In this document: positions 2,947 through 29,703 of the stretch, piece by piece
Layout: every line of letters starts with the position of its first letter
How positions within the stretch are numbered: the first letter of the stretch is position 1
Virus record (IMG/VR): IMGVR_UViG_3300047160_006886
Coordinates: 47,991 to 111,990 of that record
Source: a virus
DNA length: 64,000 nt
Reading direction: 5' to 3' (one strand)
Translations under genes and position numbers: made by a program
Notes under the pieces: generated by a model
Database searches by the model: none
What the model saw: only the letters and a program-made list of their open reading frames with translations
What the model was told of the DNA's origin: nothing

Positions 2947-3040
2947 GTCTTCCTCCGTTCCAATCTCTCTGTCGCGATCATCAGCAATGTCAGTGCGACG
3001 AGGCAGATGATCGCAAATGCCGAGTCCGCTTTTGGTTCTC

Positions 3041-6345: not shown

Positions 6346-7800
6346 CTACCCACGCTTCCCGTCCCTGGTTGCACGCAATTTCGACCACTTCATTCCATCC
6401 CGTTCCCGCACTGGGTCAATACCTGCATATGAAGAGAACCGATCCAGGCAGACATCCACGTATCTTGGCTCAATCTCCACGGCGTAACATACGCGAGCGG
6501 TCTGTTGGGCAGCGATGATCGTGGTTCCACTCCCAACGTAGATATCCGTCACCACGTCGCCAGGATCGGTGTGCCGCAGGATAGCGTTGACAGGTAACTC
6601 AACAGGCTTGGTAGTTGCGTGGTCCGGCGAACGTAATGGGTTATCTACTTCCCATATCGTTGTGCGGAACTCTCCCGCGTCCCTTTTCTTGTGTGTCCGT
6701 TTCCAAGTGAAGAGGATAGGTTCGTGCTGATAGTCGTAGTCAAGACGGTTCAGCGAGAACGTGGCTCGATTCTTCTTCCAGATAATGACGTGCTTGACGG
6801 GTAGTTTCGCGTCTTGCATAAGTAGCAGCATCGTTAAACCCAAGTCACCTCCCTGAGCCGAACAGACAAATACTGAGCAGTCATCAGCAAGGTGCGGATA
6901 ACAGGCGTTAAATCCCTTCACTAACACTTCGCGCAGATCTTTCGGAGCAATAGAATCGTCTTTGATATCTACTAAACAGCGTCCAGCCTTCTGGACGCTG
7001 TTTAGCAGCCTATTCTTAGCTCCAATCGATACTCCATAAGGCGGATCAGTAAAAAGCAACGTCGCCAGCTTCCCGTTCATCACTTTCTTCAGACATCGAG
7101 GATCTGTGGAGTCACCGCACAGCAATCGATGTTCACCAAGAAACCAGAGGTCTCCGACTGATGACAATGGCTCTCGTGGTGGCTCGGGGACCTCATTCGG
7201 GTCTCCCTGTGCCTTTGGCTGCAGCATTAGTCGCAGACCAACAATCTCTTGCGGAGTCCATCCCGGCATGATCGACTGGCCGGCTGCACTGCACATCCGC
7301 TCGATCCGGCCGACGACCTCGAAGTCCCAGCGGGCGTGCTCGGCCGTGCGGTTGTCGGCCACCCCGTACCCGGCGGCGGCCACGTCGTCGAGGTCGGTCC
7401 AGATCACCCCGGCCTTGGTCCAGGACATCTGCTTCATCGCTTCGAGCGTGCCGTTGCCCTTGATCACGATCCGGCTCTTCCTCCTCACCACCAGCGGGGT
7501 CTGCTGACCGTAGATCGACAACGACAGCTTGATGCTGTCGATGTTCCGCTCGGGGTGGAGGCGGGCGTTCATCGGATCGGGCTTCAAGGTCTTGATGTCC
7601 ACGATCTCGACTTTGGACAACGACTTGGCGATGAAGTCCTTCCGCTCGGGGATGGCCGGAGCGGCGAGAGCCTCGTCGGCCTTGCCGTCCCCATCTGCTT
7701 GCTGAGGTTTGGACAGCATCCCGGCAGGACCACGGTTCGTCAACTTGCCACTGGACTTCGAGAGCAGTCCCGAGGGACCGCGATTGGTCAGACTTGGCAT
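6346..7800 (-). CDS. ParB-N domain fused to N6A/N4C DNA methyltransferase
   Basis: LKPDPMNARLH..ADNRTAE; HRLLCGDST; TDPPYG; HATTKPV; GSGTT. Confidence 0.9.
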   Translation of the reverse strand: MPSLTNRGPSGLLSKSSGKLTNRGPAGMLSKPQQADGDGKADEALAAPAIPERKDFIAKSLSKVEIVDIKTLKPDPMNARLHPERNIDSIKLSLSIYGQQTPLVVRRKSRIVIKGNGTLEAMKQMSWTKAGVIWTDLDDVAAAGYGVADNRTAEHARWDFEVVGRIERMCSAAGQSIMPGWTPQEIVGLRLMLQPKAQGDPNEVPEPPREPLSSVGDLWFLGEHRLLCGDSTDPRCLKKVMNGKLATLLFTDPPYGVSIGAKNRLLNSVQKAGRCLVDIKDDSIAPKDLREVLVKGFNACYPHLADDCSVFVCSAQGGDLGLTMLLLMQDAKLPVKHVIIWKKNRATFSLNRLDYDYQHEPILFTWKRTHKKRDAGEFRTTIWEVDNPLRSPDHATTKPVELPVNAILRHTDPGDVVTDIYVGSGTTIIAAQQTARVCYAVEIEPRYVDVCLDRFSSYAGIDPVRERDGMKWSKLRATRDGKRG

Positions 7801-15459: not shown

Positions 15460-15619
15460 GTGGTTGTCCTTTCTCCAACAATTCCGACCTGAAGATGGGC
15501 ACCTCTCGCGGTGCCTCGATCCCCAGCCGGACCTTGCCTCTGTCTATCTCCCTGACCGTGACGACCACGTCATCACCGATCACGATTGACTCTCCCAACT
15601 TCCTGACGATTACAAGCAT
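15392..15619 (-). CDS. csrA: Carbon storage regulator CsrA
   Basis: MLVIVRKLGESIVIGDD..VRLGIEAPREVPIFRSEL. Confidence 0.92.
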   Translation of the reverse strand: MLVIVRKLGESIVIGDDVVVTVREIDRGKVRLGIEAPREVPIFRSELLEKGQPHADGDEASRKQQQAVPESEIDG

Positions 15620-19060: not shown

Positions 19061-19353
19061 GTGTCAGCCCTCGATTTCTTCTTGCTCCTTCTCCTGCCAT
19101 TCGTGCGGAACGGCATTTGGCTCACTCGCACGACCAGTCCGATGTTGATGTCACTGATCCGCACGAACAGACCCCGATCACTCGCCTCGCCTCTGATCTG
19201 CTGAGCCATCGAAGTCTGAGAGCAAAGGTAGTCTCGGCCGGCCATCACCCGGAACTCCGGCTGGGAGAACCACGTCTTCCAGTCGTACAGCTCTGGACGG
19301 CCTCGATGTCGTCTCTTGTTTTGTGTCGGTCCCGCCTCTTCGCCTTTTTCCAT
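19057..19353 (-). CDS. Small basic putative DNA-binding protein
   Basis: RGRPELYDW motif; first gene of the leftward block; TAAAAT 6 nt before ATG suggests a leaderless start. Confidence 0.55.
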   Translation of the reverse strand: MEKGEEAGPTQNKRRHRGRPELYDWKTWFSQPEFRVMAGRDYLCSQTSMAQQIRGEASDRGLFVRISDINIGLVVRVSQMPFRTNGRRRSKKKSRADT

Positions 19354-19475
19354 GATCTCATTTTATTCGATTTCCCCGGAAATCCGGGGAAAAACTAATT
19401 AGAAAAATTTTCCCAGAATTCCGTTTTTTCCTCTTTACTTCGGCGAATAAGTTTATTACCTTAATAGGTAGATTG
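19354..19475. promoter_or_regulatory. Divergent promoter region
   Basis: AT-rich; hairpin TTTCCCCGGA-AA-TCCGGGGAAA; rightward TTTACT-17-TACCTT; leftward TAAAAT. Confidence 0.55.
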
Positions 19476-19710
19476 ATCATTGACAACCGACCGCAGAACC
19501 GGACGACGGCCAGCCCAGGACGGGCAAGACGAAGGCGTGCACCGGGACGCAGCGGGGGGATCGGAGGGGGATGACCCAAACCGATCCCGGCAGACCTGGC
19601 AGAACCAGGAAGTCATCCGAGTCACGCAGATCGAAAGATCGTCAGTGCTACCCTGGAACGGTTTGAAACAGGCGGAAGCCGAGACCGGGTCCATCCCCAA
19701 GCCGCGTGGC

Positions 19711-19798
19711 TAGAACCTAAACCAACCTGCTCGATCATCTTGGAGCCATCCGAGAGGCAGCCCGTCCCAAGTCGGGAAGCAATGGTGAGGGGGTTCTA
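19711..19798 (+). ncRNA. Twister ribozyme, type P1
   Basis: P1 UAGAACC/GGUUCUA, UAA, P2 ACCA/UGGU, P4 CCCG-UCCCAAGU-CGGG, GAGGG; T1 CCC/GGG and T2 AC/GU pairings. Confidence 0.85.
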
Positions 19799-19812
19799 AC
19801 CTGGAGAGAATC

Positions 19813-20115
19813 ATGGGGTATCTACAGAATGCGATGACTGTTGGTCAACTGCGAAAAGAACTTGAAGGACTGCCGGATGACGCCGTGGTCCTCTACGTCT
19901 GCGATTACGGCGATCACTGCCACACGCAGCAAGCCCTGCCCATCTCTGAAATCGCCGACCTCGGATGCGACGAGCGGATCGAAGAGTCGGCGTACAGCAG
20001 CTCTGGCCTCTGCCTCTTAACCATCAATGATGAAGACGAGGATGACGACGAGGACAGCGAAAAGGAAACCGAAGAGGAAGAGACCGAAGACCGGAACTAC
20101 ATCATCCTGCGTTAG
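19813..20115 (+). CDS. Acidic hypothetical protein
   Basis: GGAGAG RBS; MTVGQLRKELEGLPDD phage-type motif. Confidence 0.65.
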   Translation: MGYLQNAMTVGQLRKELEGLPDDAVVLYVCDYGDHCHTQQALPISEIADLGCDERIEESAYSSSGLCLLTINDEDEDDDEDSEKETEEEETEDRNYIILR

Positions 20116-20223
20116 CGAACTAACAGCGGGGTCTAGGATCGATCATCCGAACACCGGACTCTCCAGACCGGCCCGACCCCGCTTCTTTCTTTCTGGAGTC
20201 TCAACCCTTTACTGGAGAAAGCC

Positions 20224-20391
20224 ATGTCCGAGAGAGTTCACCTGGTTCCCAAGTCCATGATCGAGCAGTGGAAGGCTGAGCTGCGACGCGAGAAGCAGGT
20301 CCAGCCCGCTATTCCCCTCGACCGGGCTATCCGGGCGGCGGCGAGCCTGCGAGCACGATTGACCCTGCGGAGAAAGGTGGTGATGGCATGA
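20224..20391 (+). CDS. Small hypothetical protein (55 aa)
   Basis: GGAG RBS, ATGA overlap with next gene. Confidence 0.5.
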   Translation: MSERVHLVPKSMIEQWKAELRREKQVQPAIPLDRAIRAAASLRARLTLRRKVVMA

Positions 20392-20822
20392 TCGACATCG
20401 ACTTCATCAAGGCCGGCCGGGCGATCTTCACCATCGCCAACGACCAAGGCAAGTGGTACACGTACCGCGTGGACCACAAGGAAGCCCGGACCGAGGAGTT
20501 CGCTGGCAAGGGCGCTCGGACCTACCCCGAAGCGTGGTTCGTCAAGCTCCTCACCGGCCCCTCGAACGACAGTGACTACACTTACGTCGGAATCTTAAAC
20601 TGCGAGCGGGTCAGGTTGACTCAACGCAGCCCTTACACCGAGGACTCGATCCCGGTGAGGGTGTTCGACTTCGCCCTGCGGGTGATCCTGGGCAAGCAAG
20701 CACTGCCGCCGGGTTACTCGATCCATCACGAGGGCCGCTGCGGTCGCTGTGGCCGCAGGCTGACGGTCCCCAGCAGCATCGAGTCGGGCATCGGCCCCGA
20801 GTGTGCGAGGAGGATGGCATGA
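20388..20822 (+). CDS. DUF6011-type zinc-finger protein
   Basis: CGRCGRRLTVPSSIESGIGPEC. Confidence 0.75.
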   Translation: MIDIDFIKAGRAIFTIANDQGKWYTYRVDHKEARTEEFAGKGARTYPEAWFVKLLTGPSNDSDYTYVGILNCERVRLTQRSPYTEDSIPVRVFDFALRVILGKQALPPGYSIHHEGRCGRCGRRLTVPSSIESGIGPECARRMA

Positions 20823-21118
20823 AGGAGATCATCACTCTTCGGACCGACGAGTACGTGGACAAGAAGGGCCACATCCGACGGCGAGCCGGCAAAGTCCCGG
20901 ACTGCGACTGCTGCGGAAAGCCTGCCCTAGTCCTGATGGAGATTGGCCGGTACAAAGACGACTGGCTGATCCAACAGTGCGACACTTGCCTAGAGCTGGT
21001 CTGCTCTGAGTGTTGCGATGTGACCGACAACGGGGAAGTGGTTTGCATCGATTGTTTGCAGGACCCCAATCGTCCGCTGAGGAGAAGTCATGACCCAAGT
21101 TACGAAAGACCAAATTAA
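20819..21118 (+). CDS. Cys-rich zinc-finger protein
   Basis: Four CxxC pairs; GGAGG RBS. Confidence 0.55.
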   Translation: MKEIITLRTDEYVDKKGHIRRRAGKVPDCDCCGKPALVLMEIGRYKDDWLIQQCDTCLELVCSECCDVTDNGEVVCIDCLQDPNRPLRRSHDPSYERPN

Positions 21119-21332
21119 GGCAGCGATCCAGATCACTCTGGCCATCGCCGACGCCATCCGCGAGCTGGGCGAGGTGCCTTCGGGTCACCTCTACGCCCGG
21201 ATCGGACACCTGAGCATCGAGGACTACAACAGCATCATCGACATCCTGAAGCGAGGCGGGCTGGTCAAGGAGCAGCACCATCTGCTCACCTGGATCGGTC
21301 CCAAACCTGACGAAGGGAGACCCAAGCAATGA
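21090..21332 (+). CDS. Small wHTH-like protein
   Basis: IRELGEVPSGHLYA..LKRGGLVK. Confidence 0.55.
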   Translation: MTQVTKDQIKAAIQITLAIADAIRELGEVPSGHLYARIGHLSIEDYNSIIDILKRGGLVKEQHHLLTWIGPKPDEGRPKQ

Positions 21333-21643
21333 AGGTGATAGATCACAATGGCTCTGGCAAACAGTGGGCAAAGAACTGCTCGATGAGGAAGCGACTCGTC
21401 CACTTCCTCGCCAACGCGACCGGGCGAGGTTGGGACTGGCGAACCCTGGCCGAACTGAGCGACGAGGAGATCCGCGAAAGAGCCGCCGAGAGACACACCG
21501 ACGCGGAGCAGGATATCGAAGACCTCACCGCCTTCGGGCTCTGGCCCATGCCTCGCTGGATGTTCAGCCGCGGCCTCGACCTACACGGGGCTGAAGCGAT
21601 GAGGCCGTACCTCTCGCCCAAGAAGGAGGTGGTCGAGTCATGA
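21329..21643 (+). CDS. Hypothetical protein
   Basis: Coupled ORF. Confidence 0.55.
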   Translation: MKVIDHNGSGKQWAKNCSMRKRLVHFLANATGRGWDWRTLAELSDEEIRERAAERHTDAEQDIEDLTAFGLWPMPRWMFSRGLDLHGAEAMRPYLSPKKEVVES

Positions 21644-22017
21644 CCAGCGTCGCTCACTCACCCGAGTGCTTGAAGGCCCAAGCGGCCTACAAGAGCTACA
21701 TCGAGAAGTGGCCCGACTATTGCACGGGCTGCGGTGGCTGGGGCCAGAAGAGTTACACCACCAATCAGTCTCCCATCGGCAGCGGCGAGTATTGGCCGAT
21801 GACCGAGAGCGAGCCGTGCTTGGCATGCGAGGGCACCTGCCCTCGCTGCCGCGATCCGAAGCGAGGGAACTGGACTGGCAAGCTGTGCAAGAAGTGCGGC
21901 TGGTCCTGCCGGGACGGCGGCATCCCGGAAGTCGAGTGCTACTGCGGCATGGAGGACGAGCCGAGCGTCGAGGAGATCGAAGCGTATCTGGAACGAACCA
22001 GAAAGGAGCAATCATGA
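21640..22017 (+). CDS. Cys-rich zinc-finger protein (CxxCxGxG)
   Basis: CTGCGGWG, CLACEG, CPRC, CKKCGW. Confidence 0.6.
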   Translation: MTSVAHSPECLKAQAAYKSYIEKWPDYCTGCGGWGQKSYTTNQSPIGSGEYWPMTESEPCLACEGTCPRCRDPKRGNWTGKLCKKCGWSCRDGGIPEVECYCGMEDEPSVEEIEAYLERTRKEQS

Positions 22018-22382
22018 GCGGATTCATCAACAACTTGTCGAATTATCCTCCAGGCATCTCCGGCAACGAGCCGGAGATCACGGGAGAGCCGAGACGGCCG
22101 AGGCTGAGGAAATACCGCTCGCACTGGAGCGACAACCACAACCAGCTTGACGAGCCGTCCTGTGTCACAAATGCGAAGGAGCAGTGGCCACTCCCCTGGG
22201 TATACTTCTTCGCCAGCTCGCTCAAGGCGGCGAAGGCACGAGTACAAGAATTCAACCTCCTGCTGATGCCGATGAACGCCCCTCAACCAGCTCATTGCCC
22301 GACGCTGTTGCTAGCAAGGCACGGATTCATGAAGTTCCCGGCCGGTCCGTTGGCAGACGTTGACTCAGAGTATCTCGTCTGA
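22014..22382 (+). CDS. Hypothetical protein
   Basis: AAGGAG RBS; SNYPPGISGNEPEITG motif. Confidence 0.55.
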   Translation: MSGFINNLSNYPPGISGNEPEITGEPRRPRLRKYRSHWSDNHNQLDEPSCVTNAKEQWPLPWVYFFASSLKAAKARVQEFNLLLMPMNAPQPAHCPTLLLARHGFMKFPAGPLADVDSEYLV

Positions 22383-22492
22383 CACCCATCTCACCTTCCG
22401 CTCGTGATCCCGAGAGCGAGACAAATCGGGATCGTTGGAGCAAGACGCACTTGCTCGACGACCAGAAGACCCAAGACGAGAGGAGAATCACG

Positions 22493-22801
22493 ATGGCAGG
22501 AAAGACGAAAGACCAACCGGCCGGGACCACGACCGAGGGCAACGGAGCACCGAGCCTGAAGCGGACCAAGTGCCCGATCACGCGGGAGCAGTTCGCCAAG
22601 GCCAACATGACCGGCACCATGACCATCGAGTTCGCCGGTCAGAAGTTCGTGTTCAACCTCGCCCCCGAGGAGTTCAAGTCCGGCTCGATGGGCTGGAAGG
22701 TCAACGAAAAGATCAGGAAGTGCCCGGTCGGAGACGGCGTGGCAGACTTCCAGGTCGGCCTGAACCTGACCGTCATCGGCAGCAAGGACTTGCCACGCTG
22801 A
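22493..22801 (+). CDS. Hypothetical protein
   Basis: AGGAG RBS; FKSGSMGWK..QVGLNLTVIGSK. Confidence 0.65.
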   Translation: MAGKTKDQPAGTTTEGNGAPSLKRTKCPITREQFAKANMTGTMTIEFAGQKFVFNLAPEEFKSGSMGWKVNEKIRKCPVGDGVADFQVGLNLTVIGSKDLPR

Positions 22802-22872
22802 TCCATCGAGCGTGCTGGTCGCGGCACGGACGGAGAAGGGGCTTTCCGCGACCCCGAGAGGAGACAGGATCA

Positions 22873-23088
22873 ATGGGACACTACTTCAAGAAAAAACGTC
22901 ACGCCGAATGCCTCTGTGGCACCGGCAACTATTGTCACCATCACATGAGGTACGGGCTAGAGCAACACGAGCAGACGCGGGACTTCATCCGCCAAGGCAC
23001 CGTGCATCTGATCCCGACCGAAGACCTCGGCCGGCACAAGTGTGGCGGAGGCATCCGCGTGGTCAAGGCCAAGATTCAGTCAACTTGA
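22873..23088 (+). CDS. His/Cys-rich small protein
   Basis: AGGAG RBS; CLC..YCHHH. Confidence 0.5.
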   Translation: MGHYFKKKRHAECLCGTGNYCHHHMRYGLEQHEQTRDFIRQGTVHLIPTEDLGRHKCGGGIRVVKAKIQST

Positions 23089-23132
23089 TTCGGCGACCAT
23101 TTCATCAATCATCAACAGAAAGGAAAGCGAAC

Positions 23133-24965
23133 ATGCCGACCGTGACTCAGAAAGCCGTTCGATCAAAGACGGCGAGCAACGGACAAGACGAGGCCGGGGA
23201 GCTGGTGTTCCCCGAGTTCGAGGTGGTCATCTGCGAGGGACCGCCGAAGGAGAAGGAAACCGTGCGGATCGGGGACAAGGTGTTCTCGGTCCGGGGCGGA
23301 CTGACCGAGCTGGACGTGGACAAGATGCTCGGCTGGGAGCCGCTCGACGCCTTCCGCGAGCGGTTGCGGGCCGAGGGCAACCCGGATTGGGCTGCCGCGA
23401 GGTTCGACGCCGAGCGAGAGTTCGTCATCACGGACGAGGAGGGCCAGACCGTCTGCTGTCGCAACATCCACAAGCAGCGGCCGTTCGACCGTGACCTGGC
23501 CCTCAACTACGGGCACCGGATGCTCAACCGGCACTGGGCCGGACCGACGTGCTATCCGGGCCGGACCATCAACGGTTCGGCCATCGAGATCACCAAGGCC
23601 GGCTTCGACCACAACGGCATGCACCGGCTGATCGGAGCCAAGTTCGCGTTCCAGCTCCGACGCAAGCAGGAGGTGCGATGGCAGAGCAAGGACTTCTGGC
23701 CTCCCGACTTGTACCCCGACGGCCTCATCTTCGACACGATGGTGGTGTTCGGCATCTCGGACGCACGCGAGATCATCCGCACCATCGACGATTGCCGGCA
23801 ACGCACCACGGCGGACGTGGCCTACACCGGCGACTCCTTCGACTCGTACCAGACCTTCGAGTACGACGCCGACGGCAAGACGAGGAGGAAGATGCCGGCG
23901 ACCAACGCCCAGAAGAAGACCCTGTCGCGGATGCTGGCCAAGGCGGCGGAGTTCGTGTGGAAGCGGACCGGTCAGGCCGAAGTCAATCACTGGTGCAGAT
24001 ACTTCGATCATGCCGAGTTCGAGGAGTTCGTGAAGCGGCATGCACGACTGGTCAAAGCGGTCGAGCACATCTTCGAGGAGAACCGCGAGCGGAGCCTGTC
24101 CAACCTCGGGCTCTCCCCCGGCGAATGTGCCGGCATGCTGTACCTGATGGCGGCGAGCAAGAGCGACAGAGACCGCTACACCGGGATCGCGAAAGGCTCC
24201 GGAGATTCACCGCCGTCCGAACGGCGGATCGACTTTGCCAACTGGGAGCCGGCACTCAAGTTCTGGTCCGAGCTGGTCCGCGAGCCGAAACTGTCCGAAG
24301 TGTCCAAAGCGGTGAGACACGCCTTCGCCGTCATCGGCGAGATCGAAGTGCCCGAAGGTCAAGAGGAGGAAGAGCAGGAGATTAAGGACAACCGCTCGGT
24401 CGCCAAGCAAGTCATCCTCGCCAAGGCGTGGAACCTGCTCGCCGAAGACATCAAAGAGGACGAACAGGGCAAGCGGTTCTTGCCGTCCCGTCCGCAGCTC
24501 GACGCAGACGACATCACGGTCGAGCACGTCGAGAAGGGTGCGGAGACTGAAGAGGGCCACACTGGAGTGTGGGTCCTCGCCTCGTTCGACGGCTTCGGCG
24601 GCATCGACGTCGGGCCGAAACGACCGGCCGAGAAAAAGCCGAAGCCCAAACCGTCCGACAAGGCCGAACTGCGGAGGCTGTCGGCCGAAGAATCTGCCGA
24701 GGTGCTCCGCAAGGCCAAGGAGGATAAGGCGGCGCAGGCCCAACAGAAGCGACTGGCAGAATCGCCGCTGCCGAAGAAGCCCAAGCCGTCTCCGGCCGAT
24801 GTCAAGGGACCGAAACCGAAGCGTGCGACGTCGAACGACGTCAACGCTGCTCAGACCGCACGTGCCCTCAAGGCGGATCAGGAAGCCGCTGCTCAGGGCA
24901 ATCAGAAGGCAGCCGCTGCGGTGGCGGCTCACAAGAAGGGCGGCAATCTGAAAGGAGGTCTGTAA
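23133..24965 (+). CDS. ParB/Srx-like (DGQHR-type) domain protein with K/P/A-rich tail
   Basis: QRP..NY..M..W..ING..I..HNGMHRL..IDD..RT.AD. Confidence 0.6.
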   Translation: MPTVTQKAVRSKTASNGQDEAGELVFPEFEVVICEGPPKEKETVRIGDKVFSVRGGLTELDVDKMLGWEPLDAFRERLRAEGNPDWAAARFDAEREFVITDEEGQTVCCRNIHKQRPFDRDLALNYGHRMLNRHWAGPTCYPGRTINGSAIEITKAGFDHNGMHRLIGAKFAFQLRRKQEVRWQSKDFWPPDLYPDGLIFDTMVVFGISDAREIIRTIDDCRQRTTADVAYTGDSFDSYQTFEYDADGKTRRKMPATNAQKKTLSRMLAKAAEFVWKRTGQAEVNHWCRYFDHAEFEEFVKRHARLVKAVEHIFEENRERSLSNLGLSPGECAGMLYLMAASKSDRDRYTGIAKGSGDSPPSERRIDFANWEPALKFWSELVREPKLSEVSKAVRHAFAVIGEIEVPEGQEEEEQEIKDNRSVAKQVILAKAWNLLAEDIKEDEQGKRFLPSRPQLDADDITVEHVEKGAETEEGHTGVWVLASFDGFGGIDVGPKRPAEKKPKPKPSDKAELRRLSAEESAEVLRKAKEDKAAQAQQKRLAESPLPKKPKPSPADVKGPKPKRATSNDVNAAQTARALKADQEAAAQGNQKAAAAVAAHKKGGNLKGGL

Positions 24966-24970
24966 TCATC

Positions 24971-25225
24971 ATGGCGTCTGAACACGGACCACTCATCGAC
25001 ACTATGGCTGAAGCCCTTGCCAAGTTCGACGAGTCCCATGAGTTCGCCCTGTCCGAGGCCGGCGTCGAGACCGGCCGCTTCGCCACCATCGCCGAGGCCA
25101 GGGAGGAGGTCCGGACGACCTGGGGCGAAGGTCGTCAGCTCGAATGGCGGCGAATGATCGTCGACGGACGGCGAATGCTCGTCCATGAGCAGTTCGCCAT
25201 CTATTCTGTACCGAAGAAGTCGTGA
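24971..25225 (+). CDS. Hypothetical protein
   Basis: GGAGG RBS. Confidence 0.55.
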   Translation: MASEHGPLIDTMAEALAKFDESHEFALSEAGVETGRFATIAEAREEVRTTWGEGRQLEWRRMIVDGRRMLVHEQFAIYSVPKKS

Positions 25226-25351
25226 CGACTTCTCTTCCACCCCTCCTCGGCCTGCCCAGGGTCGGCGAGGGGGACAAGAGCAGCCGACCGATGGCCACCG
25301 AGTCTCGCTTCGAGGCCGGGGCCGCTGCGGTGCTCGCAAGGAGAACGAACG

Positions 25352-25651
25352 ATGGCAGATGTCAATGTCAAGACGGTGTCGTTGGAGTTGAAGACCTGCA
25401 AACTGACCAAAGCGATTCTTAAGCAGATTCCGATGATCAGCTACTCCCAGTACGCCAACGTCCGGTCGGTCTTCACCGAGGAGGGCCACGAAGTCGCCGA
25501 GTGCGTCATCGGCTGGGTCCACGGCTCGGTGCTTGGTGCCGACCATGACCACTGGCTGATCGTCAAGACGCCGGACGGCTACGGCCGGTTGAACATCGGT
25601 CTCGGCGGAAATGACCTCCGCAAGAAGTACCCGCAGATCTACATCGTGTAG
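25352..25651 (+). CDS. Hypothetical protein
   Basis: AGGAG RBS; LTKAILKQIP..VIGWV..YPQIYI. Confidence 0.6.
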   Translation: MADVNVKTVSLELKTCKLTKAILKQIPMISYSQYANVRSVFTEEGHEVAECVIGWVHGSVLGADHDHWLIVKTPDGYGRLNIGLGGNDLRKKYPQIYIV

Positions 25652-25788
25652 ACGACTCCTCTTACCGCCCTCCGTAGCCCACCCACCGTGTCGCGGTCAA
25701 CGGCCAAGCGTGAGGTGGAGCGGAGGGTGGACCGAGCAGCCGTTTGCTGTCTCCTGCCGAGGGTCAGTGATCTCTCACATGGAGATAC

Positions 25789-26142
25789 GTGATGCGTATT
25801 ACCAAGAAGTGGGCCAGGAGCGTTCGTGACGCTCTCCAAGCCAGGGTCAAGGAGTTGCGATTCATGGACGCCGAGCAGCTGCGGACGGAGCACAACAAGC
25901 TCTTCCCGACCGCAACCGTCCGCATCGCCGATGACATCTGTGCCAACTGCGGTGGACCGGTCGGCAAGCAGCCGGCGTCCGGGAGCGACCGCATCGTCTG
26001 CCTCGGCCGAGACGGCGGCATCCGGCCCTGCATGACCGCCGAGCGGACGATGGCCGAGGTTGACCGCAGCCAGGAGGAGATGACCCGTAAACTGATGATG
26101 CTGAAGATCGACGAGCTGATACCGTCGAGCATCGTTGACTAG
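25789..26142 (+). CDS. Hypothetical protein
   Basis: GGAG RBS; CANCG. Confidence 0.55.
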   Translation: MMRITKKWARSVRDALQARVKELRFMDAEQLRTEHNKLFPTATVRIADDICANCGGPVGKQPASGSDRIVCLGRDGGIRPCMTAERTMAEVDRSQEEMTRKLMMLKIDELIPSSIVD

Positions 26143-26304
26143 ACCAGTCCTTCTTCCACCGCTCCGGGAACTGGCGGGCGGCTATGGTCCGGACGCGAAC
26201 TCTCTGAGATGGCGAAACCCGGCCAGACGCCATGTTCCGAAAATCCCTACCAGCCCGGAGCGGGACAAGAACGATACTAAACCCAACAAGAGAAAGGAAA
26301 CCAA

Positions 26305-26538
26305 ATGAGCAAGGAAAGAGACAAACACATTGACGACTTGAACGATCTGGTCAGCTATCTTCAAAAGGAGGGATTGGACGCCGACGACCTGGAGGGAGCC
26401 GTCTGCGACGAGAAGAAAAATGAAGCGGATTTGCTTATCGAAGAAGGGCTTATGAGTGTATGCGAATACCTGATTGAAAACGGTTGGCATTTAGAAGCCA
26501 TCAGAAACGAAGCAAGACAAGAAAAGGCCCAGGAGTGA
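26305..26538 (+). CDS. Small acidic hypothetical protein (lower GC)
   Basis: AAGGA RBS. Confidence 0.6.
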   Translation: MSKERDKHIDDLNDLVSYLQKEGLDADDLEGAVCDEKKNEADLLIEEGLMSVCEYLIENGWHLEAIRNEARQEKAQE

Positions 26539-26583
26539 CACGGCACTGTCATCCGTGAGAGGACCAGCCGCTCTTCAGGCTGG
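26539..26583 (+). ncRNA. Hairpin plus H-type pseudoknot motif, copy A
   Basis: Same architecture as 26832-26876 with covarying stems. Confidence 0.6.
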
Positions 26584-26600
26584 ACTGTAAGGAAAGTGAA

Positions 26601-26831
26601 ATGAAAATCCTATTAGAGCCGCTGTTAGACTGGATCACCAGCAACGTCTATGACAGCGGGCACGGTTTGTTGGGTCCGCCCAGTTGGGTGATCGATGCCG
26701 AGACCATCTTGGACAAGCTAAGGGAGCTGGCCGGTATATCCAAACACGAAATGACTGTGGCTTATGACCAGGCAAGAATCCGAGTACATGGAAGAAACGT
26801 TGATGGGGGAACCTACCTCGACGAGAACTGA
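26601..26831 (+). CDS. Hypothetical protein (lower GC)
   Basis: AAGGA RBS. Confidence 0.55.
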   Translation: MKILLEPLLDWITSNVYDSGHGLLGPPSWVIDAETILDKLRELAGISKHEMTVAYDQARIRVHGRNVDGGTYLDEN

Positions 26832-26876
26832 CTGGGCAGCGTCATCCCAGACACGAGCGAGCGGTGTTCAGCTCGC
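26832..26876 (+). ncRNA. Hairpin plus H-type pseudoknot motif, copy B
   Basis: Covarying copy of 26539-26583. Confidence 0.6.
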
Positions 26877-26894
26877 ACAGTCAGGAGTTCAATC

Positions 26895-29441
26895 ATGAAA
26901 GCCAAAGACATCAAGCAAGGCCACCACTACGAAACGAAGATCGGCGGCAAGCTGACAGTCGTAAAAGTAGATCGGATCAACGAGGAGCGAGAGCCAACGC
27001 TGGGCACCAACCGCTCCCGGAAGACCGGGAAGATGACTTTTGAGGTCACCAACCTCTCAACCGGCCGCAAGACCACGTTCCGGTCGGCGGCGAAGTTCCG
27101 TCGGGAGGCCACCCCCGGCAGCCTCGTCATGGAGCATGAAAACAAACGCATCAAGAGATTGCAGGAGCAAGTTGCCGAGAAGGTCATCCGCCCGACCATC
27201 GACAAGCTAGTCGAGCAAGGAGTCCTGCCGAAGCCCACCGGCGAGGTAAAGATCGAGTACCCCAATGTCCCTTTCGCCGAGCGGGAGGCGAGACCCCCAG
27301 CGAAATCGTCGAGCGACACTCCAGGCTCCACGGCACGCTCCAGCCGCTCGACCCCACCTTCGTCCGGAACTCAGTCGACAGCAAGGACAACCGCTGCTGG
27401 TGTGAACATTGCTCAGCCGCACGGCAGCCGAGAGAATCCCGGCAGCAGCGACGAGATCGAGAGCACCGAGAACAGCTCCAGCGAGGCTACCGAATCCTCG
27501 CCGGCGAGGCCGCTGACCCACCAGCAGGTCAAGGCGATATTCGACGCGGTGGACAAGACCGAGTTGCTCAAGAAGGTCCGCTCGACAAACGATCCGACTC
27601 CCCTCTCGCTTCAGCAGTGCCAGGAGGTTGTGATGAGCGAACAGGAGGAGGTGCTCAAGATCATGAGAGAGACCAGGGGCAAGCCGGAGTTGCGAGACAA
27701 GAAGCTGCGGGAGCTGGCCAACCGACACAACCGTGGTGGAAGGAGATCGCAGACCAACACGCTGAGTGCTCCCGACGAAGCCTCAAGCCACCACACAGGA
27801 CTGACTTCCGAAACATCTCCTTTGACCCTTCCCTCGTCACCGGCAGATGCAGATGTCGAGCCTGCCGGGAAGGAGTCAACAACGGCTACCGACCCAGCAT
27901 CACAGCAACCCCAACTGACCCCGACGAGGGAGAAGGATGCCCCGGTAGTTGAGAACCTGAAGGAGACGCTCCAGCGGGCAATCAACCAGGTGACCGAGAC
28001 GATTCCTGAAGCCGCCGGTCTCCAGGGCGATCAGCCGCAGGCATTCATCGACCTGACTACTAAGATCAGCGATGGCAAGCGGGTCGTGGTGCTGTGTGGC
28101 TTCGCCGGCACGGGCAAGACCGTGCTGCTGACTCGGATCGCCCGCTGGGCCAAGCGGCAGAAGTACGATGTGAAAATCGCCGCCCCGACCCACAAAGCAG
28201 CATCGGTCATTTCTCAGAAACTCGCTTCGTCCGGACCCGGTGGAACCGACATCGAGGTCCGCACGATTCATTCGATGCTCGGCTTGAGGCTGGAGCCGGA
28301 TTACGAGTCCGACTCCGGCGGTCACATCCTGACTGCCCAGGACAGCAAGTCCAAGGTGAAGACCGGCCTGGTGATTTGTGACGAAGCGTCGATGGTCGGT
28401 GAAGTCCTCAAAGACCACATCGAGAAGTCGAGCAGCGACATCATCTGGGTATTCGTAGGGGATTTAGCTCAGCTCCCGCCGGTCGGCGAGAGCATCAGCG
28501 AACTCCTGGACGAGCCGGATGCGGTGCTGGAGAACGTGCTCCGCCAGGCCCAGGGATCGGAGATCCTGAACCTGGCGACCCGCATCCGCAAGGGTGACAT
28601 GAGCATGAAGCACAAGAAGGGCAAGGACGTATTCGAGGTCGCCGATGCCGAGCAGCTGTTCCAGGCCGCTCTGACCAAGTTCCGGGACCCGGCCTACCAG
28701 AAAGACCCGTCGTTCGCACGGATGCTGGTCTTCAAGAACGCAAGGCGGCAGGCCATCAACGCCCGGATGCGAGACCTGCTGGTCGGCTCCCAGCAGCCTT
28801 ATGAGCCGGGCGAGTGGCTGGTCATGTACCAGCAGTTCGCTCCGGAGAAGTCGCGGCTCAATCTCATGGCCGAGGAGGCGAAGAAGTTTCCGAAGGGCGA
28901 CCGCAGACGCGGCCCGGCCTGGAAGCGGTTCTTCGACTACCAGCGGCAGCTCGGCGAGTCGGTGTCAATGCTCCATGTCAGCGAGGAGGTCCGCGTGGTA
29001 GCGGTCTCCGAACGGGATGTCGATATCGACGACTACACATTCGGCGTCTGGAGCCTGACCGTCCGGACCAAGGACGACCAGGAATACGTCCTGCCGGTAC
29101 TCAAGGACGAGGAGCGGGAGCGTCACTCGAAGGCCCTGGCGACCATCATGGCCAAGGCCCAGGAATATCGAGCCGAGCGGGATGAGTGCCCGAAGGGGTC
29201 GCCTGACTGGATTGATTGGGACGAGAAGCGGAAGAAGGAGTGGGGCCGCTATTTCGGCATGGAGTCCACGTTCGCTCAAGTGGACTACTGCTACTGCATG
29301 ACCACCCACAAGAGCCAGGGGTCCACGTTCGATCATGTGTTCGTCGATGTCCCCGACTTGATGTCGAGCGGCGGCATGCAACAACGAATCCTTTACACGT
29401 CGGTTACACGACCGGCGAAAAGCCTGACCTTTTACAAGTGA
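26895..29441 (+). CDS. Dda/RecD-like SF1B helicase with long N-terminal extension
   Basis: GFAGTGKT, APTHKAA, DEASMV, VGDLAQLPPV, THKSQGST, YTSVTR. Confidence 0.9.
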   Translation: MKAKDIKQGHHYETKIGGKLTVVKVDRINEEREPTLGTNRSRKTGKMTFEVTNLSTGRKTTFRSAAKFRREATPGSLVMEHENKRIKRLQEQVAEKVIRPTIDKLVEQGVLPKPTGEVKIEYPNVPFAEREARPPAKSSSDTPGSTARSSRSTPPSSGTQSTARTTAAGVNIAQPHGSRENPGSSDEIESTENSSSEATESSPARPLTHQQVKAIFDAVDKTELLKKVRSTNDPTPLSLQQCQEVVMSEQEEVLKIMRETRGKPELRDKKLRELANRHNRGGRRSQTNTLSAPDEASSHHTGLTSETSPLTLPSSPADADVEPAGKESTTATDPASQQPQLTPTREKDAPVVENLKETLQRAINQVTETIPEAAGLQGDQPQAFIDLTTKISDGKRVVVLCGFAGTGKTVLLTRIARWAKRQKYDVKIAAPTHKAASVISQKLASSGPGGTDIEVRTIHSMLGLRLEPDYESDSGGHILTAQDSKSKVKTGLVICDEASMVGEVLKDHIEKSSSDIIWVFVGDLAQLPPVGESISELLDEPDAVLENVLRQAQGSEILNLATRIRKGDMSMKHKKGKDVFEVADAEQLFQAALTKFRDPAYQKDPSFARMLVFKNARRQAINARMRDLLVGSQQPYEPGEWLVMYQQFAPEKSRLNLMAEEAKKFPKGDRRRGPAWKRFFDYQRQLGESVSMLHVSEEVRVVAVSERDVDIDDYTFGVWSLTVRTKDDQEYVLPVLKDEERERHSKALATIMAKAQEYRAERDECPKGSPDWIDWDEKRKKEWGRYFGMESTFAQVDYCYCMTTHKSQGSTFDHVFVDVPDLMSSGGMQQRILYTSVTRPAKSLTFYK

Positions 29442-29703
29442 AAGGAGATTCAAGCAATGTTGCTAGGCAAGCAGACAATATCCATCAGAGCCATCATCCG
29501 ACCAAGATGGTTGAACACCGAGATGAGGACTCGCATCAACGAGAGCAAAGTCAGCCAGTACGCCCCTCGAGATGTCTGAAGCTGCTGTCGGAAGCAGCAG
29601 CGGCAGGGGATGTCGACCCCGATGATGTCACCGATGCAGCCGTTGCCTACTTGAAGGACAACGGCTGGATCAAGAAACCAAGAAAAGAAAGGAGACCCAA
29701 GCA

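Follow-up and report, generated by a model that had tools for sequence, protein, structure and literature searches.

The IMG/VR virus record IMGVR_UViG_3300047160_006886 (111,990 bp, estimated 93% complete) derives from an uncultivated soil phage of about 112 kb with a probably lytic lifestyle. Its final 64 kb, called the window hereafter and used for all coordinates unless stated otherwise, carry an operon on the + strand (19813..29441) in which 16 small, mostly ORFan genes, including one for a DUF6011 protein and one for a 610-aa protein, are followed by the gene of an 848-aa SF1 helicase. A very probable twister ribozyme precedes the first gene, and nearly all the long gaps between the following ones are occupied by structured elements of several kinds, named S1 to S3 and S5 to S9. 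We consider it somewhat probable that these long gaps are cis-acting RNA modules that set the ends, the stability and the translation of one polycistronic message.

The operon diverges from genes of replication and packaging located on the − strand (274 to ~19245), which encode a terminase, a ParB-methyltransferase, a primase/helicase, a DNA polymerase and an exonuclease. Between 19813 and 26895, 16 gene junctions are found, eight of which are gaps of 62–162 nt. Other genes were said in an earlier note on this DNA to be joined simply by ATGA overlaps, and such start-over-stop overlaps indeed account for six of the 16 junctions (five of 4 nt and one of 29 nt), the last two junctions being a 5-nt gap and an unstructured gap of 44 nt. 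A promoter scan detected no sigma-70-like promoter within the operon and a terminator scan detected no canonical terminator on its + strand. Because consensus promoters and terminators are lacking inside the operon and the remaining genes overlap as ATGA, a single long transcript can tentatively be proposed. The operon may be an early one, as judged from gene order and gene size only.

At gathering thresholds, an Rfam scan of the window gave no match. The permissive scan retrieved twister-P1 (RF03160) at 19711..19798 on the + strand (core 19714-19795) with 42.2 bits, for a gathering score of 67.2; the corresponding E-value is 8.8e-7 in this 8.5-kb scan and 2.7e-9 in a single-family search of the genome. 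Though under the gathering score, the candidate contains all the core elements of RF03160, namely P1, the U-A site, a 4-bp P2, T1, T2, P4 with its 10-nt L4, and GAGGG, arranged in the type P1 layout (twister architecture, including the pairing geometry of T1 and T2, is described in PMC5408937). P1 is formed by 19714-17/19792-95 (AACC/GGUU) and can be extended to 7 bp (19711-19798). The cleavage step, U19718/A19719, lies within UAA, with the required N-A at the P1/L1 junction. P2 corresponds to 19721-24/19783-86 (ACCA/UGGU) and P4 to 19761-63/19774-76 (CCC/GGG). L4 is GUCCCAAGUC (19764-73), nine of its ten letters being identical to the consensus and the tenth compensatory, and GAGGG is located at 19787-91. 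Both pseudoknots are present. In T1, CCC 19766-68 of L4 pairs with 19789-91, the GGG of GAGGG in L1. In T2, the L2 dinucleotide AC (19725-26) forms two Watson-Crick pairs, A19725-U19772 and C19726-G19771, rather than the consensus G-C/C-G, one of the pairs being compensatory. Since the letters that deviate from the consensus at two places (AC for GC in L2, U at the ninth base of L4) pair together, T2 is retained as A-U. The score is lost elsewhere, in a 24-nt P3 insert, a 3' strand of L2 lengthened to 6 nt and non-consensus stems. The copy also contains the NC, GRG and NA elements, NC leaving the first L2 letter free, of the descriptor used in a large screen of natural twisters, where most imperfections were tolerated except in the pseudoknots and in the catalytic residues (10.1101/2024.07.11.603121). 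The twister announced by the earlier note is thus very likely a genuine ribozyme and probably an active one.

The 3' end of the twister is 17 nt upstream of the first ATG. On its other side, the leader folds no better than shuffles (z −0.68) and shows no pseudoknot signal, so that nothing argues for an extensive, structured leader RNA 5' of the ribozyme. Elsewhere in the genome, neither further ribozymes nor other Rfam families were found.

At the other end of the series, a 55-nt motif made of a hairpin and a pseudoknot occurs in two copies on the + strand. S8 (26539..26593; 76.1 bits with a covariance model) begins directly past a TGA and S9 (26832..26886; 76.2 bits) immediately precedes the gene of the SF1 helicase; gene 26601-26831 lies between the two gaps. 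The next best match of the model in the 112-kb genome reaches 10.9 bits. The two copies align without gap over the 55 nt and show, in order, a 5-bp hairpin with loop CANNGUCAU, an H-type pseudoknot combining a 4-bp linker/loop helix with a 6-bp stem, and a tail, ACNGUNAGGA, that contains the Shine-Dalgarno (SD) sequence. Their covariation, already claimed in the earlier note, is clear: all 15 pairs of the three helices are kept, eight of them compensatory, versus 0–1 in slid controls, and RNAalifold recovers both nested stems unaided. Paired positions account for 16 of the 20 differing columns, and the eight affected pairs all stay Watson-Crick. The unpaired letters are otherwise constant, in loop CANNGUCAU, in the pseudoknot loops GA, G and UCA, and in the tail. 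As for the pseudoknot, 5/300 (S8) and 4/300 (S9) shuffles were as good, in the same test as that used for S2 and S3 (see below). Loop L1 has 2 nt over the 6-bp stem and L3 has 3 nt over the 4-bp stem; from established pseudoknot stereochemistry, these lengths are sterically sensible on the + strand only. Read-through of the stop codon at S8 was also envisaged and was rejected, as the read-through frame stops after ~22 codons and yields no fusion.

The position of S8 and S9 at ribosome-binding sites (RBSs) raises the question of translational control. RBS-adjacent pseudoknots are translational operators in T4 gene 32 and in E. coli rpsO. Like the operators of T4 gene 32, E. coli rpsO (S15) and the alpha operon (S4), S8 and S9 place a pseudoknot and conserved unpaired bases at an RBS; they differ from them by the absence of sequence similarity, by preceding unrelated genes, encoding a 76-aa ORFan and the helicase, and by having no identified cognate protein. 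By extension, all modules except the twister could remain uncut and act on adjacent RBSs as operators or small riboswitch-like sensors, S8 and S9 then binding a protein or a small ligand via their conserved unpaired letters. Covarying stems combined with invariant unpaired CANNGUCAU, GA, UCA and ACNGUNAGGA are the usual signature of a binding RNA, the motif continues into the SD sequence, and the phage possesses a CsrA. On the other hand, Rfam offers no riboswitch or leader family as a match, even with E raised to 10, the sole GGA common to both S8 and S9 is that of the SD sequence, and the S5, S6 and S7 elements described below lie at the stop-codon end of their spacers, 40–90 nt from the next SD sequence, with a 5' box that pairs no better with the cognate RBS than with others. 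Control of translation alone is an unlikely account of the modules.

Another possibility is that S8 and S9, perhaps with S5 to S7, represent a type of RNA not described before, either self-cleaving or dedicated to phage-specific processing, which would take in this operon the role held by repeated twisters or hammerheads in those of other phages. This idea comes from their covarying stems, invariant unpaired bases and compactness, and from the known ribozyme nearby in the same phage operon, a type of neighbourhood that has guided the suspicion and discovery of new ribozyme classes (PMC6765202). We regard it as very improbable.

The CsrA homologue is encoded on the − strand (15470..15619), among the replication genes and ~4 kb upstream of the operon. 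Phage-borne CsrA is uncommon. The gene, which the earlier note had associated with the structured spacers, is real (PF02599, 77.8 bits for a cut-off of 27, E 7.4e-23), but only ordinary AGGA ribosome-binding sites tie it to the motifs. CsrA-regulated leaders have at least two exposed A(N)GGA motifs, one of which overlies the SD sequence; in S8 and S9, the common GGA is limited to the SD AGGA, and S5 to S7 keep a GGAC in their internal loop without the upstream A. A link between CsrA and the operon motifs would be conjectural.

The second repeated motif is a bulged hairpin, exactly three copies of which were found by scanning the 112 kb of the genome. S5 (25226..25286; 56.3 bits with model R2), S6 (25653..25742; 96.6 bits) and S7 (26147..26275; 80.2 bits) occupy three consecutive gaps on the + strand, each beginning 1–5 nt past a stop codon, at the very first base in the case of S5. 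The motif starts with a CU-rich 5' box and is closed 60–130 nt further by a GGAG.GGAC.AGAG-type sequence. It folds into short outer helices, a CUCUU/AAGAG helix, a 3x3 internal loop, an upper helix rich in GC, and an apex that varies between copies (short in S5, ~100 nt in S7). The internal loop is CCA/GAC in S5 and S7 and differs in S6, the loosest copy. Over 17 pairs, 91.7% of cells are paired and five pairs are changed on both sides, versus 0–1 in slid controls. Nested-fold z-scores range from −2.4 to −3.7, the latter value being the minimum free energy (MFE) z-score of S7. None of the three copies is followed by a U-tract or gives a pseudoknot signal. A role of the CU-rich box as an anti-SD sequence or translational coupler was discarded, since duplexes with the cognate RBSs are no better than those with other RBSs; in the duplex check, the RBS of S7 was fully open.

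With about two turns of double-stranded RNA, an internal loop, an intercistronic position and an upper helix of at least 6–10 bp, S5 to S7 have the features of RNase III signals. In T7, the early mRNA of ~7 kb contains five such signals, in which single-strand cleavage at internal loops leaves stabilizing 3' hairpins (PMC3867540). S5 to S7, which lie right after stop codons, resemble R0.3-R1.3 of T7 in being intercistronic and in having an internal loop set between a lower and an upper stem. The differences are that there is no sequence relation, that cleavage is hypothetical in the operon, that the operon opens with a ribozyme and combines modules of at least four types unrelated to one another, and that T7 boosts RNase III via its kinase, no gene for which was seen in the phage. 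Neither RNase III nor RtcB was found in the phage genome; as the phage is without its own RNase III, host enzymes would do any cutting.

The same three elements could instead be read at the DNA level, as attC-like single-stranded DNA sites for recombination, cassette boundaries or insertion scars. They form imperfect palindromes whose ends are conserved and whose length varies, they sit right after stops in consecutive gaps, and a like pattern of structured repeats in successive gene gaps is shown by the DUF1874 motif, single-stranded DNA and RNA motifs being hard to tell apart (Weinberg et al., PMC5737381). However, in contrast to DUF1874 or attC elements, they exist in three copies only, with none found elsewhere, they contain no R''/R' boxes of the GTTRRRY type, as found in integron attC sites, and G-U pairs are present in S6 and S7. 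An attC-like role would also lack its enzyme, since no tyrosine recombinase/integrase (PF00589) was found in the 93%-complete genome. Finally, every copy of the repeated motifs is on the coding strand and keeps a fixed register relative to stop codon and SD sequence. Because of this register and of the strand-specific loop lengths of the S8 and S9 pseudoknots, the role of the motifs is argued to be at the level of RNA rather than DNA, and the DNA-level explanation, repeated hairpins in general included, is highly unlikely.

The three remaining spacers contain single-copy elements, all on the + strand. S1 (20126..20196), after the first gene of the operon, is a three-way junction resembling int-alpA (RF02996), with 32.4 bits and an E-value of 3.4e-6 per genome. 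An 8-bp GC stem closes the junction, which comprises two small hairpins and has the CUAG and CGAA letters of the int-alpA consensus; a U-rich tract follows, as in the family. In contrast to int-alpA, S1 follows gene 1 of a lytic-looking operon and is not beside an integrase or alpA gene: its neighbours are ORFans and the genome has no PF00589 integrase, so that the genomic association of int-alpA is missing. It is called int-alpA-like, and not a member, because its score is 3.4 bits short of the gathering score of 35.8. S1 can be considered a candidate attenuator or terminator.

S2 (22399..22434) and S3 (22811..22853) are H-type pseudoknot candidates that bracket gene 22493-22801, S2 being 5' of this gene and S3 directly 3' of it, before the RBS of gene 22873. 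Within their spacers they are the best candidates, trimmed stems being allowed. In S2, stem 1 is CGCUC/GAGCG and stem 2, of 8–9 bp, is GAUCCCGA/UCGGGAUC, with 1–2 nt in L1, 0 in L2 and 7 A-rich nt in L3. The pseudoknot scores −19.8, versus −4.8 ± 3.9 for shuffles; 1/300 dinucleotide shuffles was as good (0/100 in a second test) and the nested MFE has a z-score of −3.1. In S3, stem 1 is CGUGC/GCACG and stem 2 GGUCGCG/CGCGACC, with 1 nt in L1 and 18 nt in L3; 2/300 dinucleotide shuffles were as good. The two further pseudoknots listed by the earlier note are therefore found where it had placed them. The only homologue of the 102-aa protein encoded by the bracketed gene is P0007 (42% identical), carried by a 99-kb JGI contig that may belong to a distant relative of the phage.

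S1 brings in the possibility that the spacers hold transcription-level signals, namely terminators, attenuators or put-like antiterminator RNAs that would stage the expression of the operon. Two-copy stem-loop antiterminators, as in putL/putR of HK022, are a known phage device. In favour of this explanation, the GC-closed junction of S1 has a U-rich tract behind it and resembles a family in which such a tract is part of the model. However, no U-tract follows S2, S3 or any of S5 to S9, the terminator scan was empty on the + strand within the operon, and the exact register with stop codons and SD sequences points to a post-transcriptional role. We consider transcription signals quite unlikely as a general explanation.

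To what extent is the operon unusual? As a control, genes were crudely called over the whole genome, and every same-strand spacer of 45–400 nt was scored for its nested MFE and its best pseudoknot. At most 2/100 shuffles were as good for seven of the eight operon spacers, whereas among the 32 same-strand spacers from the rest of the genome seven reached this level (Fisher test, p = 0.0012; Mann-Whitney test applied to the lower z, p = 0.004); these p-values are descriptive only, because the region had been picked after it had been seen. The earlier note had stated that most spacers longer than ~60 nt carry tertiary-type RNA structure. The part on folding stands, as seven of the eight beat their shuffles, while tertiary-type structure is restricted to five of the nine elements (the twister, S2, S3, S8 and S9), S5 to S7 being bulged hairpins. 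The spacers that fold well outside the operon have none of its motifs and consist of plain long GC hairpins, in some cases with a U-tract. Among them, two are in operons of the − strand and may be terminators or stabilizers: a 164-nt double long hairpin at C1:43257-43420 in genome coordinates, 4.6–4.7 kb before the start of the window (z −3.9), and, at 2947-3040 of the window, a hairpin of 11 bp that is extended in a pseudoknot-like manner (0/100 shuffles). On the + strand, past the helicase gene and a 40-aa open reading frame (ORF), spacer 29580-29703 has two near-perfect hairpins of 8–10 bp (MFE z −3.6); it has the same direction of transcription as the operon and no motif in common with S1 to S9.

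This control bears on a mostly neutral origin, in which the spacers, except for the twister, would be GC-rich leftovers of local duplication with composition-driven folds and no selected role. Every repeat is indeed local and present in one genome only, three of the eight spacers (S1, S2 and S3) are single-copy and have shuffle statistics alone, and shuffle tests flatter natural sequence. But the operon remains enriched when real spacers from its own genome serve as the reference, and the pattern of S8 and S9, in which differences fall at 16 of 20 columns in pairs, eight pairs remain Watson-Crick and loops are invariant, is hard to obtain without structural selection. A neutral origin thus seems very improbable.

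The favoured explanation, that the long gaps are RNA modules acting in cis on one message, can be described in four steps. The first is well grounded. Self-cleavage of the twister at U19718/A19719 would discard the upstream leader and leave an mRNA whose 5'-hydroxyl is enclosed by the folded ribozyme, the first start codon being 17 nt further on. Since both pseudoknots persist in the 3' cleavage fragment of a twister, the 5' end of which is buried (PMC8782182), such an end should blunt 5'-end-dependent decay; a similar proposal exists for the hammerhead heading the early transcript of HF1/HF2 (PMC3088659). In the following steps, which are inferred and for which the early mRNA of T7 is the nearest model, S1 and its U-tract could serve as a leaky stop or as a 3' stabilizer for the first cistron. 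Then, S5 to S7 would be cut on one strand or would block 3'-exonucleases, upstream segments thereby ending in a protective hairpin. Lastly, S2, S3 and S8/S9 may insulate neighbouring cistrons and set translation initiation, possibly via protein binding. Sequence alone cannot separate segmenting, stabilizing and translational control by the modules. With respect to the RNA-level programme proposed in the earlier note, what stands is that the spacers are non-randomly structured, that they keep a fixed register on the coding strand and that one cut, by the twister, is grounded; a tie to CsrA beyond AGGA sites does not.

Several points weigh against this explanation. The modules fall into four or five kinds with no relation to one another, so that separate jobs fit as well as one programme. 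The twister and S1 both score under their gathering thresholds. S2 and S3 are each known from a single sequence with shuffling as sole support, and in S3 the nested fold is ordinary (z +0.6) and a 7-bp hairpin competes with stem 2. The covariation of S8/S9 and S5 to S7 is between two or three paralogous copies that share ancestry within one genome. The specificity of RNase III is not predictable for an unidentified host. Seven of 32 spacers elsewhere are well folded too, and the region was chosen after it had been inspected. Finally, no related phage with comparable spacers was found among viral contigs or in the phages collection.

The search for relatives gave little. The DNA polymerase and terminase of the phage are at most 26% identical to those of any cultured phage of the phages collection. 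In the viral contigs collection, the 610-aa protein, the helicase, the DNA polymerase and P0007 have no usable kin, helicase matches being only 25–30% identical. Protein homologues include P0002 (58% identical), P0003 and P0007. At the DNA level, the region matches nothing in the phages collection beyond an 88-bp patch (20719-20806, +; 75% identity), at the DUF6011 zinc-ribbon-like end of gene 20388-20822, which resembles hypothetical genes of CcrColossus and CcrPW, two giant phages of Caulobacter. Concerning the RNA motifs, the S8/S9 covariance model (R1) gave no match in 692 kb of helicase-related phage loci, and a pattern scan of viral contigs gave 0 matches. Two pattern matches in the metagenome collection and one in the genome collection were dismissed as chance, being unrelated and without the stems. 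The one match to the S5-type two-box pattern (L037) was likewise attributed to chance, because it lies in repetitive coding sequence unrelated to the phage. Both repeated motifs have so far been seen, among the sequences searched, in this phage alone. Short soil-metagenome contigs without differences from window 19300-27000 were recovered in runs of 18 studies, so that the presence of the phage, or else of a strain very close to it, is widespread in soils at low abundance. Four runs were inspected; they contained only short contigs, with neither variants with respect to the phage nor RNA ends, and the one labelled metatranscriptomic is probably DNA.

Some features of the encoded proteins may be mentioned. 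Gene 1 of the operon (19813-20115, +) encodes a 100-aa protein, the C-terminal third of which is a run of Asp/Glu; its position matches that of Ocr, the acidic DNA mimic of T7, and its sole family match is a weak one to DUF6225 (E 0.0055). The 610-aa ORFan (23133-24965, +) has five homologues only among 5.8 billion proteins, the best being 58% identical, and the atlas gives weak leads to viral clusters of the ParB_N, GmrSD_N and DUF6551 types. An RNA-related role for this protein and for the 102-aa protein was considered and set aside, as the atlas shows only viral hypothetical clusters and the weak ParB/GmrSD leads. On the − strand, beside the packaging genes, 6346-7800 encodes a fused ParB-like nuclease/DNA methyltransferase (phrog_498, E 2.4e-91).

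Ribozymes heading or punctuating phage operons have been known since 2011 (PMC3088659; PMC6765202). Hammerhead arrays occur in prophages, and in HF1/HF2 a hammerhead is located 13 nt before the first early ORF, the mapped 5' end of the early polycistronic transcript being at most 3 nt from the hammerhead cut (PMC3088659). Processing of long phage transcripts has been proposed as the role of such ribozymes (PMC3088659; PMC6765202), and the roles of genomic self-cleaving ribozymes in bacteria and phages are largely an open question (PMC5408937, PMC6765202). As in phage arrays of hammerhead, HHphage or twister ribozymes, the operon has a ribozyme a few nt 5' of the first ORF and multiple elements flanking single genes; unlike in these arrays, only one ribozyme is recognizable and the other gaps hold non-ribozyme or unrecognized structures. 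What appears particular here is that one ribozyme is combined with modules of at least four further types, and that two unassigned motifs show internal covariation and have so far been seen in this phage only. The operon is compact and testable. If the modules were inert, it would stand as a caution on inferring function from well-folded spacers. A new RNA family would be defined by the 55-nt motif, should it prove to cleave itself or to bind a factor. If cuts or protected ends occur at the modules, a mixed toolkit of ribozyme, host-nuclease signals and pseudoknot insulators would parcel a long message, thereby extending the T7 picture.

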